Assembly: GCA_951406725.2 (NCBI GenBank)
Contig: OX597815.1
Coordinates: 115,754,001 to 115,818,000, forward strand
Source of the DNA: Octopus vulgaris
Taxonomy: Eukaryota
Reading direction: 5' to 3'
Length of the DNA stretch: 64,000 nt
Part shown: positions 8,111 through 59,163 of the stretch, in pieces
Layout: each line of letters begins with the position of its first letter
Position numbering within the stretch: position 1 is the stretch's first letter
Made by a program: the position numbers and the translations under genes
The notes under the pieces: generated by a model
The model's input: only the letters and a program-made list of their open reading frames with translations
Databases searched by the model: none
What the model was told of the DNA's origin: nothing

Positions 8111-8611
8111 TAATCTGAAATATCATAACTAATTTTCCAGGTTCTAGTATAGCTAGTTCATCTTGGTAGTGGATATTTATTACTACTAGGCCTAGTCATG
8201 GTTTGTATCTATGGTAGTGGTATTTCATTGTTTACATGGGCAAAATAATCTGAAATATCATAACTAATTTTCCAGGTTCTAGTATAGCTAGTTCATCTTG
8301 GTAGTGGATATTTATTACTACTAGGCCTAGTCATGGTTTGTATCTATGGTGGTGGTATTTCATTGTTTACATGGGCAAAATAATCTGAAATATCATAACT
8401 AATTTTCCAGGTTCTAGTATAGCTAGTTTATCTTGGTAGTGGATATTTATTACTACTAGGCCTAGTCATGGTTTGTATCTATGGTGGTGGTATTTCATTG
8501 TTTACATGGGCAAAATAATCTGAAATATCATAACTAATTTTCCAGGTTCTAGTATAGCTAGTTCATCTTGGTAGTGGATATTTATTACTACTAGGCCTAG
8601 TCATGGTTTGT
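8111..8611. repeat. Minisatellite, 135-bp unit x ~3.7
   Basis: Units start at 8111, 8246, 8381 and 8516 (taatctgaaatatcataact...) and are almost identical. Confidence 0.97.
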
Positions 8612-53529: not shown

Positions 53530-54758
53530 TAAAAGGGTGAGCTGAAAAGTTCCTAAGCTGACTATGAAAAAGTGATGCATTAATTTCAACACTTCTTATT
53601 AATAACTGCTTTGTTTCTTTCCAAGTAAACTGACAACTCTTCAAAGAAGACTTCAAAAGTAACTGGTAGCAACTTCTCTTCAAAATTGGCAAAATATGGC
53701 ATTGTGCTGTTAACAAGTACCTACAGACAAAGGGTTTAGCCCCCAAGGACATTCATGCTGACATGGTTGCTACATTAGGGGAAGACACACCAGCTTTATC
53801 AAAGTGCAAAAGTGGGTAACTAGATTTAGAAGAGGAAAGGAGAGTTTTGAACATGACCCAATGTCTGTTCATCCTACAACTGTCACCACCATGTTCAGTA
53901 CATGATGACAGTTGACAAGTAATTGACTATAAATCAAATAGCCAATGTTATTAGATATCTCATATGAGTTGAAAATACTCTGCACAATGAACTTAGCATT
54001 ACAAAGGCTTTTGCTCAGTGAGCGCCACGTCTTCTGACATTTGATCAAAAGTGCACCAGACTGATCACATCACAGGAAAATCTGGCATTGCTTCAGGCAG
54101 ATCCAGCTGGTTTCCTTGAATGTTTCCTAATCCAGGATGAGTGTTGGTTTCATCACTGAGCCAGAGACAATCTATGCAGTGGAAAGACCCCTCCTCACTT
54201 GCTCCAATGAAGGTCAAGGTCCTTTCATCTGCAGGGAAGGTGATGGACTCAGTTTTTTGGGATGCAAAAAGCATTGTGTTTATTGACTTTTTCAATGGGT
54301 CACATCATCAATGGAGAGTACAACACCAATTTGTTGAGGTAGATACAAAAAGCTATCAAGACCAAACACTCAGGAAAACTGACAGAAGGAGCCTTGCTCC
54401 AACACACAAGTCCTTCATTTCAATGGCTACTATGCATGACTGTGGCTTTGAACTGGTTGATTGCACATACCACCCCCTATTCTCCTGATTTGGCGCTATC
54501 TAACTATCATCACTTCCCCAACATGGTAAAATACTTGACTGAAAACCATTATTGCAGTGATGACATCATATCAGCAGTTGATGACTTTTTTTTATCAACA
54601 AGATGAAAGCTTCTTCATCAATAGGATCCAAGCACTGTAACACCAATGGAAGAAGCGTGTGGACTGCAAGCAGGGCTATGTTGAAAAATAAACCTCATTT
54701 GGTCACATTCCACGAGAGTATCTCGGTCAGACTATGAACTTTTCAACTGATCCTTGTA
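53530..54758 (+). mobile_element. Full-length decayed mariner transposon, family 2
   Basis: TA-flanked TIRs (aagggtgagctgaaaagttc / gaacttttcaactgatcctt). Peptides SAGKVMDSVFWD and PYSPDLALSNYHHF (YSPDL motif). Confidence 0.93.
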
Positions 54759-55418: not shown

Positions 55419-56172
55419 CTCTAGACTGTTGGACACAAGAAATATAAAGAAAAAGAAAGAATATTGTAAGAAAAAAGTTAAAAACTAGAAAACTAAGTTG
55501 GAGCATAATGTATCTGTGGTCAGCTAGGACTTGAATGAATACAAGGAAATCTTGAGAATCATGCAAAATTAATGTAGTTGGTGTAGGAGTAAGTGGTGAA
55601 AAGACAAAACAGTTAGACACAAAAACAGTAAAGTCCATTACAAATGACAAAAAAAAAAATCAGTGAAACAGCTGATGAAAAAGTAATCAAAAATGTAGTT
55701 AGTGAAAAATGACCAAGCAAAATCGAGTTTTTAAAGCTAATAGTCTTATATTGTAAATAAAGGCAGATCATACATTAATGTATCATATGATATCTAATTG
55801 CATAAAAGAAATTGCCTTAGGCTGTTTTACATTCTTGAATGTCAGACAAAAAGTAGCCAAAATGAAAAAAACTGGTGAAAAAAATTTACCAAACAATTTA
55901 AAATATCTATTTATAACTAGCAATGGCAAAAGTGTTTGTTCTAATACTCTGCTTGAATGCAGCAACTGGTAAATCTTCCTACCCTGTATTGTTCTATTTG
56001 ACCCAGAACATTTAAAACCGTTTTAATGCAAAATCTAAATATGATGGGCTTCTAAGTAGTGCACCAGATAAGTTTTTCAATGTAGTAACTAAAAAGAAAA
56101 AGTGATTGTGGAGATATCACTTATAACTAAAGGAGCATCAAAAATACAGTTCTATATTTAAGAGATGAGGTA

Positions 56173-56623
56173 CATTATTTACATTCAACAGATATTTGTC
56201 CTCATGTTGTTTGTTGTTAACACAACAACTATACCCTCTAGCCTTCTTCAGGTATCTTGGGGAAATTTTGAACCTGGGTTCTCATTCCTAATGTATTTTT
56301 CAGTGATGTTATTATTATTGTCCAGGTCACTGCTTGGAATCGAATTTAGAATCTTGGGGCTACTAGCCCGCACTCTTAACCACTATGCCATATGACCATG
56401 GAGTAGTGGTTAAGAATGCGGGCTATAACCCCAAGATTCCGAGTTTGATTTCAAGCAGTGACCTGAACAATAATAATAATAATAATATTGAAAAATACCG
56501 AAGGAATAAGAACCCAGGTTCAAAATTTCCCCAAGACACCTGAAAAACGCTGAAGAGTATATCAGCCGAAACGTGTTAACAACAAATAAGATGAGGACAA
56601 ATATCTGTTGAATGTAAATAATG
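56173..56623. mobile_element. Palindromic (foldback) element: two head-to-head tRNA-headed units with hammerhead-ribozyme remnants
   Basis: Arms of ~220 bp are reverse complements around a ~6-nt spacer at 56392-97. Each arm has A/B boxes, (AAT)n and a CTGA-stem-GAAAC-type segment. Confidence 0.85.
56535..56577 (+). ncRNA. Degenerate minimal type-I hammerhead ribozyme motif (right arm)
   Basis: gacac-CTGAaaa-ac-gctg...cagc-c-GAAAC-gtgtt. The core is mutated here; the left arm retains CTGAAGA and the GTT triplet but has lost GAAAC. Confidence 0.5.
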
Positions 56624-58088
56624 AGCATCAAAAATGTTAAGATAAAATCAGGAGTCACAAAACTATTTGGTTCTGCAACAGATAAAGACTTGAACTTAGA
56701 GTTGGTGATGCTGCAAATAATACTGCAAGTCTGAATAATTTACAATTATTTTGTGACAAATTGTATTCTTTTTATCATAAGTCCCTAAAAAATCAAGATG
56801 AATTAAATGCATGTGTTGATGCCCTTTACTGTCGATAGTTGAAAATTGTTATGTTTTCAACTAATCAAATTGTAATGGCGATATAGTAACCATGTAGAGC
56901 AATTTGAGGGCATTTTGGAAGAATAAGCTCTGATAAATAATTTGGGCTTGCTGATGGATAATTTGCTACAGCTGTTTGAACAGTCAAACTATAGAACCGA
57001 AATAGTGCACTTAATTAACTACTTGAAGATATTAAATGAACTAGAATAGGTTTTGAATGTCAAATAGTTTGGCCTTTTTTTGTCGTTATCAATAGTATAG
57101 CAGAAACTGTGACTTAACCACCTTTGCTGTGCCAGAGTGGTTTCCTGAAAGAAGTATTTAGCTCCATATGTTACTACCTCTTCACTCAAGGGTGTGTCAT
57201 GAAGGAATGACTAGTCAATACATTTGCTATAATGGAGGCCAGAAACTGTACATATCTGTCCCTTTAGATTTTCTGTAACGGTTAGTTCTCTTAACCTCTT
57301 TTTTAAATGCTCAATAAATAATCCCACATGGCAGCAGGAGTTTATTATTATAGTGGGCATTATTTGTGCAGAGCCAATCCCACTTTCCCATCCTCAAAAC
57401 TTGTATCAGTCTGATGCAACAAGTGTCACGAGCTCAGTAGTAATCAAGGTACATAATTTGTATAGAGTTACCTTCTCTTAAACGAGCAGCAAAATAGTTG
57501 AAGGGTCTCATCTGCCCTGGGCCTATCAGTGAGTGACCTATCTGTGTGTGACTAGTGAATGATCTTCTGGAGGCAATTCCATGACATGCTAATTAACCCT
57601 GACAGGTGCTACTACTCTAGGTCAGAACAGGTCAGAACAGACCTGAGAACAATTTCTCAAAAATCATAGAACTCTTGAAATAGGGCTCTGCTACCGAAGA
57701 CAGTCTGAAGTCATACTCAGGACGTGAATGTCAAATAATGACGGAAAAATACTATTCTTAAGTGCGGAAGGCAATAAGCCGAATAATATTTAATGGGGTA
57801 ACTTTGAAGGTCAGCTATCTATCAGAGCCTACAGAAAATTTAAGAGATCTAAAATGAAAATAATTTATGCACATTTTCAGCAGTTGCTAATGTCTATAAG
57901 TACAATTTCAATGTCAACTGAGAACTGTCGAAGCTTCCTTCAGTGGCATCAATATAGATATGTCGTCAAAACGTGCACGACTGCAAATTAATATTCTTTC
58001 AAGTTAGTGGAGATTCCACTACCAAAATTAGAAACTGAAGAATATCAGGACATGGTCTTAGTAGCAAAAGATATGTTGAAGAAACGAC

Positions 58089-58717
58089 GGTCAATATAAA
58101 GATCCTCACCCGTTAACGAAAAAAAAAAAGAGGCCTGCTGGGTGTTAACAACTGTGTAGAAAACGAATATGAAAAAAAATTTGCGCAAACCACTTGAGGG
58201 GGGGGGGCTTTCGGAAAATTCACAAGATCCGATTTTTCCCTCACAGCTTTCAAGAAAATGGATATATGATTTTTTTTTTTTACGGAATCCCACGTTTCCG
58301 GTTATGGAGAATTCGATTCTGAAAAACAATTGTTTGTGAAATTTCAATTCTTCAAAAAAAAAAAAAACCCACCTCCCAATTCTACGGCCTTGGCCTTCAA
58401 GCAGGCTATCCACATGCTAGAAATAACAGCCAAATCTCACAAAACTGCGATAACATAATGAAAGAAATATACAATCAATCTGCCCATTTTCAGGTCCACA
58501 AACACACGTTTTACGCTGGTCAAATGATTCTCTTTCATTACACTTTGTTACAATATTTCTTTGCTATTTTTACTTTTCTTTTTTTTTCAAAAGAGCTCGC
58601 TATTATTTCTGCACTCATTTTTTGTAACTTTCAAGTTTTCTATATTGTTGTTAACACCCAGCAAGCTAGGGTTTTTTTTTATGTTTTCGTTAATGGTTGA
58701 GAACCTTTATGTTGACC
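58089..58717. mobile_element. Non-autonomous DNA transposon with ~100-bp TIRs
   Basis: ggtcaatataaag...tgctgggtgttaacaac is mirrored by gttgttaacacccagca...ctttatgttgacc. 8-bp TSD gaaacgac / gaaacaac. Confidence 0.8.
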
Positions 58718-59163
58718 GAAACAACATGCAGAAAGCGATGGCAATAAAAAAGGGAAGATTATATAGTTATAAAACGTTCTATAACGCAAAGTGAATTGTA
58801 AAACAATAATGCATTCATACTTTAAATGGGAGGAATTTTAGAAATTCAGAATATATTTAAAGATTGACTGATTGTCGTGTCTATATGCGAGTTCACATAC
58901 GTACATACATATAAACACACAATCATACCCTCCCATCTTAAATATCAACACAAACATTAACAAGAAAAAACGATACAGTCACTCCCTCTGATCTCAGAAA
59001 TATGTATTAAAAAATCTGAATTATAAAAAAAAATCAATAAACAAACCAGCCACAACACAAAGGAAAAAATACTTCAGCAAACCAAATAAACTTCCTAAAG
59101 GAAGTTTGAGAAAGTGAAAGTGGGACGCTATACTCAAAGATTACTACTTCCATTATCTTACAT

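Follow-up and report, generated by a model that had tools for sequence, protein, structure and literature searches.

A palindrome in the Octopus vulgaris genome read as an inverted pair of tRNA-headed pseudo-LTRs of a Penelope-like retrotransposon

The palindrome analysed here lies in a 64,000-nucleotide stretch of Octopus vulgaris contig OX597815.1 (the window). It is best explained as a decayed inverted pair of pseudo-LTRs (pLTRs) of a Penelope-like element (PLE), whose tRNA-derived head likely sets the transcription start and which came from two reverse transcription events at a staggered cut within one insertion; we give this whole reading a probability of roughly 0.7. The identification of both arms as PLE pLTRs is nearly certain. 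The new part, judged from sequence, appears to be the tRNA-headed pLTR with a 5′ wall resembling a start site, while palindrome, tail and ribozyme are known PLE traits. As the palindrome and the ribozyme are expected features of a PLE, the surprise is smaller than an earlier note on this DNA, made from its letters alone, had supposed. The literature searched, with repeat databases, subscription papers and supplements outside its scope, yielded no description of a tRNA-headed pLTR, and Repbase, Dfam or SINEBase may already list it as a SINE with no Penelope link.

The earlier note had placed an imperfect palindrome of about 450 bp at 56173..56623. The palindrome is real, with inverted arms at 56166-56630 whose blocks are 84-91% complementary and an arm-versus-arm alignment spanning the full length (204 of 273 columns identical, flanks counted), but the limits had to be redrawn. 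The insertion is larger, occupying 56146-56622 inside a direct target duplication of 11-13 bp, and both this duplication and the ~27-nt tail of the left arm (56145-56172) had been overlooked. The A-box, B-box, (AAT)n and ribozyme-like blocks were found in both arms at the places given for them, but the right-arm A-box as written out was a chimera, about 8 nt being deleted beside the centre. The parts of the locus are as follows.

56133..56145, + strand: left copy of the target-site duplication, 13 nt, its last base shared with the element end
56145..56172, - strand: PLE tail, present on the left arm only; about 27 nt of the ~30-nt extension, with 5 nt deleted
56146..56398, - strand: left arm, a PLE pLTR from head to tail, by arm alignment and end mapping
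56219..56256, - strand: remains of the left hammerhead, with the core preserved but GAAA and the 3′ strand of stem II lost
56283..56285, - strand: ATG whose frame leads into the PLE ORF in full-length copies but is interrupted here
56309..56319, - strand: (AAT)n tract of the left arm, read from the sequence
56325..56397, - strand: tRNA-derived head of the left arm; A-box 56380-56390, B-box 56336-56346; tRNA profile 5.2 bits
56394..56401, no strand: centre, where the 10-nt quasi-palindrome that opens the unit at its 5′ end has decayed; axis between 56398 and 56399
56399..56463, + strand: tRNA-derived head of the right arm; B-box 56441-56452, A-box damaged by a deletion of ~8 nt
56468..56486, + strand: (AAT)n tract of the right arm, read from the sequence
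56535..56577, + strand: remains of the right hammerhead, a 3-nt-short variant without the cleavage triplet; G8 of the core is altered, while stems I and II can still form
56399..56622, + strand: right arm, a PLE pLTR ending at the tail-less 3′ site, by genome matches and end mapping
56623..56635, + strand: right copy of the target-site duplication, its first base shared with the element end

The right-arm head fell below the threshold of the tRNA profile. No further family copy was found elsewhere in the 64-kb window, and no tandem array at the palindrome site. The palindrome is no product of chance, nor is it a one-off local inversion, an outcome the earlier note had allowed for: the right arm had 5,223 first-look candidates in the genome, 40 of which were scored.

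The arms had been interpreted as a separate non-autonomous SINE/retrozyme hybrid, possibly mobilised by a Penelope-like reverse transcriptase (RT). The choice of mover proved apt, a search having found an RT/GIY-YIG ORF adjoining the unit. The separate identity was not supported, as the unit is the pLTR of a coding Penelope element and holds the first ~50 codons of its ORF. Among the first 30 loci, a coding stretch like an RT thumb plus GIY-YIG stood directly upstream of the head in two, and a fragment of it in a third. At the ORF-end loci, the unit directly followed the stop codon of the RT + GIY-YIG ORF in 27 of 30 by BLAST and in a 28th by eye; these 30 include the query itself and four near-duplicates. 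The unit directly preceded the ORF start, in direct orientation, at 10 of 30 N-terminal loci, and a pLTR-ORF-pLTR arrangement with a period of about 2.6-2.8 kb was recovered in 4 of 20 fetched copies (L098, L099, L101 and L102). Each repeat opens with the tRNA head and (AAT)n, followed by the in-frame ATG, the minimal hammerhead, two sites ~30 nt apart at which 3′ ends fall, the ORF and then the next head. The ATG upstream of the ribozyme was in frame with the conserved N-terminus in three of the four copies having it (eight examined), and inverted 5′-truncated copies also occurred in ORF-bearing loci.

The RT domain of the ORF matched Pfam RVT_1 (E 5.5e-10). Its C-terminal part was nearest to HTH_animal/GIY-YIG clusters (0.96-0.97), and C-terminal pieces gave no match in Pfam. 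The protein had 992 relatives at E<=1e-20 that aligned throughout, some of them 60-70% identical to it, and was 40% identical to an Anolis protein; a PDB search gave weak RT matches only, and the viral_contigs search gave no relative. No Cys-rich (Zn-finger-type) linker between RT and endonuclease was seen by eye in the aligned relatives. None of the copies examined carried an intact ORF, the longest open stretch being 465 aa. With a single ORF of RT and C-terminal GIY-YIG, direct pLTRs, an inverted truncated copy, a one-sided tail and a hammerhead motif, the element is, by the sequence features tested, an endonuclease-bearing (EN+) PLE.

The available portions of the PLE papers describe most of this anatomy. 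Like Penelope/Poseidon EN+ PLEs, for example PAc of Anolis, the octopus element has an RT + C-terminal GIY-YIG ORF, pLTRs, an inverted 5′-truncated copy, a tail of 30-40 bp at one end, and a minimal hammerhead in which stem II is preceded by an extra base and stem III is palindromic (PMC11167929, PMC8557442, PMC4209133). As in PAc, the ORF begins before the site of ribozyme cleavage (PMC11167929). Its tRNA-derived segment and (AAT)n, which lie after the ORF stop and before the hammerhead, and the sharp 5′ wall immediately ahead of that segment have no counterpart in the text available on these PLEs. A profile of host tRNAs matched 22 of 30 ORF-adjacent pLTRs of the family and none of 42 3′ regions from other PLEs, of which just 15 had the same hammerhead layout and some may lack a full pLTR.

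The tRNA-like head with A- and B-boxes that the earlier note had recognised was borne out by this profile and by alignment to host tRNAs, in which the head scored 64 as against 29.4 ± 4.6 for shuffles (maximum 44 among 300). The best host match was tRNA-Arg, which, with only 26 host tRNAs of few isotypes in the comparison, is not an assignment. The octopus SINEs OK, OR1 and OR2 of Ohshima and Okada (1994) are said to be tRNA-Arg-like as well, a likeness by description only. Of two pattern searches for a parent tRNA, one gave family copies among the 100 matches listed and the other a single non-tRNA. ARAGORN and Rfam called no tRNA in the 64-kb window or in near-majority copies; relaxed ARAGORN settings gave noise and an A-box pattern recovered one of three positive controls, and the tRNA profile was used instead. 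As ARAGORN and Rfam made no call, the tRNA and hammerhead labels are based on motif anatomy, tRNA alignment, profile and a motif census. At least two other abundant tRNA-headed repeats, unrelated to this head, were seen in L264, L155, L212, L192, L185, L201 and others.

Copies end abruptly at the head. Among tail-anchored copies that reach the head start (n = 29), 23 stop at -13..+10, none at -14..-88, and six enter the ORF (binomial 6e-16). Of the heads that could be finely mapped (75 of 103), 69 start at 0..21 and 16 at 0/1, solo and inverted copies alike. The pile-up sits 13-14 nt upstream of the A-box, a spacing that fits a type-2 Pol III start, and the wall lies 6-7 nt upstream of tRNA +1. 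The head probably marks the start of the element RNA.

The tRNA segment could instead be a passenger, an old SINE or tRNA pseudogene in the 3′ UTR, with transcription by Pol II or by read-through and with a wall that reflects a hotspot of palindrome joining or stalling, or processing of the tRNA fold. A self-complementary sequence does lie exactly at the wall, 224 exact intact fold-back centres exist genome-wide (control 0), and the RNA-seq and T-run data given below, with no RNA start and a weak signal, agree with such a passenger. However, the same wall was found in copies without an inverted arm, 22 of 26 of which start at 0..14, and an RT stall would be expected 3′ of the structure and not just past its 5′ end. 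The distance of the wall from tRNA +1 also means that it is not an RNase P end. We consider the passenger explanation rather unlikely.

How the element is transcribed is a separate point. In three raw-read RNA-seq runs with a related label, made from ordinary cDNA libraries, both strands were covered equally, reads were concentrated in the 3′ unit, as the genomic copies are, and no peak of RNA starts was present at the head. The commonest letters of the sense strand (2,626 columns, 67 segments) contain one TTTT where a Markov control expects 3.2, and this lone run, at which 10-14 of 31 rows are gapped, is read as an alignment artefact. TTTT density was 0.42 per kb in the decayed copies versus 2.0 per kb in 34 other PLE ORF segments with similar T content; 9 of these 34 lack TTTT too, and G4 runs are likewise absent from the commonest letters. 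When each ORF piece was compared with synonymous shuffles, T-run scarcity was significant in none (8 of 8 P>0.14). As a sign of Pol III read-through, the scarcity of T runs is suggestive only. The known Penelope promoter is described, in the available part of PMC2377424, as internal, TATA-less and LINE-like. That Pol III makes the full-length element RNA is a tentative proposal, which we hold slightly less probable than its converse. The same grade applies to the scenario in which a coding Penelope element captured a tRNA promoter in its pLTR, Pol III would transcribe a full-length RNA (~3 kb, TTTT-free), and internal priming would give rise to SINE-like copies by the tens of thousands with no SINE master gene.

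The size of the family was estimated from exact motifs counted over the whole genome: 11,666 tails (21-mer downstream of the ribozyme), 5,629 heads (19-mer) and 1,016 ORF ends (19-mer), with 0 for the reversed-motif controls. Copies diverge from the commonest letters by 4.6% outside CpG. From these counts and this divergence we infer roughly 30,000 tail-bearing copies from a single moderately old burst. A head-anchored sample of 103 copies comprised 10 ORF-linked and 93 short copies; an inverted arm of some kind was present in 63 of the short copies and two full heads in 17. The head-to-head palindrome had been taken for the integrating unit of the family, which these 17 of 93 do not bear out; it is an integration product. 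In 19 of the 103, mostly ending in the AAT tract, the head had no remaining pLTR within 700 nt, and at one of seven loci checked (L287) this was due to an insertion into the AAT tract, the remaining pLTR lying 816 nt further on. In three of the 103 heads (L246, L291 and L294), one and the same other sequence follows the AAT tract, with ~600 nt in common between L291 and L294; it may be an element inserting into (AAT)n or a chimeric subfamily.

Short units could also have propagated by themselves, as a Pol III SINE-like family borrowing the Penelope protein. This would suit the excess of head over ORF-end motifs (~5.5-fold), the A- and B-boxes with a sharp 5′ boundary, and the 19 heads without the rest of the pLTR, and retrozymes have been argued to be non-autonomous PLE derivatives (bioRxiv 10.64898/2026.07.22.740005, in the text available). 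However, variant rates were similar in ORF-linked regions (32 only) and short ones (118), at least one head-only case is the insertion at L287, and, by analogy with PAc, whose template needs ORF sequence ~55 nt beyond the RT start sites (PMC11167929, available part), short units would lack a required template segment. The ORF adjoins the unit on either side, and short and ORF-linked copies have their variants in common, which is not the pattern of an independent non-coding family. We regard self-propagation of the short units as unlikely, and a self-propagating subset may exist.

In its commonest letters, the ribozyme block has stems I and II of 5 bp each, a CUGAUGA core with one extra A after it, GAAA behind stem II and, where stem III would be, a 6-nt palindrome. 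This is the minimal type-I hammerhead with palindromic stem III that the earlier note had deduced, and its predicted consensus matches the family apart from the core, which is most often CUGAUGA and not CUGAaGA (T in 96 versus A in 23 of 150 regions). The motif was fully intact in 18 of the 150 regions, or 40 when wobble pairs were allowed; 106 regions had the long form and 17 the 3-nt-short form without the cleavage triplet. Both local ribozymes are broken, as had been thought, the left through loss of the 3′ side of stem II and GAAA, the right through the changed G8 and the missing cleavage triplet. The Rfam comparison proposed alongside went the other way, with no hammerhead called in the 64-kb window or in near-majority copies; a match to Rfam mir-5408 was dismissed, being just the hairpin and far below the gathering score.

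In folding calculations, the ribozyme fold reached -12.2 kcal/mol versus -13.6 kcal/mol for an alternative, with -3.5 kcal/mol for the stem III self-dimer, and cleavage by the family hammerhead is expected to require dimerisation or the aid of a protein. Minimal PLE hammerheads showed no monomer cleavage and weak dimer cleavage in the available part of the study by Cervera and De la Pena (PMC4209133), which had already noted PLE hammerhead pairs on opposite strands 100-700 bp apart. Clustering of 5′ ends at the ribozyme cut was considered and rejected, as only 2 of 86 tail-anchored copies begin there and 3′ ends lie far beyond the cut. Four second arms starting at the cut among fold-back-centre loci fit a microhomology. 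The scarcity of 5′ ends at the cut agrees with PAc, whose substrate is uncut RNA, and uncut RNA was likely the template here. The two commonest length variants, a loss of 3 nt at the cleavage triplet and a gain of 9 nt ahead of the tail, leave the ORF in frame, through selection in source elements or simple slippage. The 3-nt-short variant might be the scar of an RT jumping over the cut, slippage being an equally good account.

The arms of inverted pairs differ at their 3′ ends. In 86 tail-anchored copies, 3′ ends were bimodal, at 232-265 in 50 and at 273-290 in 36. Among 109 inverted pairs, to which four loci contributed two each, exactly one arm carried the ~30-nt tail in 97, neither in 8 and both in 4. 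A flank duplication of at least 9 nt, with a mode of 12-13, framed 52 of the 109 versus 1.9% of mismatched pairs. An inverted copy and a one-sided tail are general PLE traits (Craig et al., PMC8557442), and for PAc of Anolis in vitro the tail is tied to two internal RT start sites (Frangieh et al., PMC11167929), both according to the portions available. In a further sample of 30 loci chosen by their intact fold-back centre, both arms reached the 3′ end in 16. The tail was on the 5′-shorter arm in 10 of 15 unequal pairs of this sample, so that neither arm of these can have been copied from its partner. Rare letters common to both arms amounted to 0.66 per pair as against 0.20 for random arms, an excess that 0 of 2000 permutations reproduced (44 pairs, without L001-L030), and gene conversion could account for such shared letters.

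We infer two cDNAs from one source, primed at both ends of the staggered cut and joined at their 3′ ends. In the proposed course, transcription of the element, plausibly by Pol III, would begin at a G that precedes the A-box by 13 nt, and the element protein would cut both strands about 12-13 nt apart. Each DNA end would then prime a cDNA internally, one per RT start site, as in the described part of the PAc reaction (PMC11167929); priming in the 5′ pLTR would give SINE-like units of 250-285 nt, and priming in the 3′ pLTR would give truncated copies bearing ORF sequence. Joining of the two cDNA 3′ ends would use the short self-complementary stretch with which the RNA begins, or alternatively a short fold-back plus microhomology.

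A single cDNA that folded back and copied itself, or a later local inversion, would also leave a palindrome. Many centres do have a perfect fold-back of 16-33 nt, and the rare letters common to both arms would be expected of self-copying. However, both arms have sequence missing from the partner in 10 of the 15 unequal cases, and a later inversion is excluded by the single direct target duplication framing the whole pair. Taken together, these alternatives to paired priming are very improbable; self-copying is contradicted for most pairs, and a fold-back may account for the opening 16-33 nt of the second arm. A proposal that an AC/GT centre marks the primary, always tail-bearing arm was rejected (8 versus 8). 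At fold-back centres L111-L140, L132 among them, the middle two bases were found either way round with respect to the full arm, in one case collinear with the ORF, which suggests a flip or mismatch repair at the joint.

Three further systems share parts of this design, as far as the available text of each source goes. Like Sm-alpha of Schistosoma, the octopus unit has a putative Pol III-type promoter followed by a type-I hammerhead; unlike Sm-alpha, which is non-coding and tandem, it is the pLTR of a coding element, with inverted pairs and a minimal ribozyme (PMC6765202). Like non-LTR retrozymes, it is a short (~300 bp) hammerhead unit related to PLE pLTRs (PMC7229834; bioRxiv 10.64898/2026.07.22.740005), and the available preprint text contains neither 'tRNA' nor 'polymerase III'. 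Unlike retrozymes, which form head-to-tail arrays cut to monomers, its copies are inverted or solo with ends off the cut site (PMC7229834); neither the array search at this site nor the 5′ end counts pointed to tandem monomers with ends set by cleavage. Like the TRIMp3 elements Cassandra, Helenus and Ajax, it would have a small-RNA-derived Pol III promoter inside a terminal repeat; unlike these non-autonomous true-LTR elements with PBS/PPT and 4-5 bp target-site duplications, it belongs to a coding PLE with duplications of 12-13 bp (PMC10886601).

If the proposed reading holds, the family would be an autonomous retroelement run from a tRNA-type promoter, the PLE counterpart of Cassandra and Helenus, and a 'SINE' in a repeat library could be the solo pLTR of a Penelope element. 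Pol III aside, the family is a large natural data set on PLE inverted repeats and one-sided tails, in which the tail asymmetry (97 of 109), the 12-13 bp duplications and the non-copied arms would, by analogy, agree with paired initiation at the two internal RT start sites known from PAc in vitro.

Three other features were seen in the window. Nested terminal inverted repeats at 58088-58718 (80-83% complementary, ~630 bp) look like the remnant of a MITE/TIR transposon. An ORF of 115 aa lies at 54141-54488 on the + strand, with a motif that we take to resemble a mariner-type transposase fragment. A 135-bp tandem repeat at 8111-8611 (3.7 copies, 99% identity) has a length that is in frame and is possibly coding.
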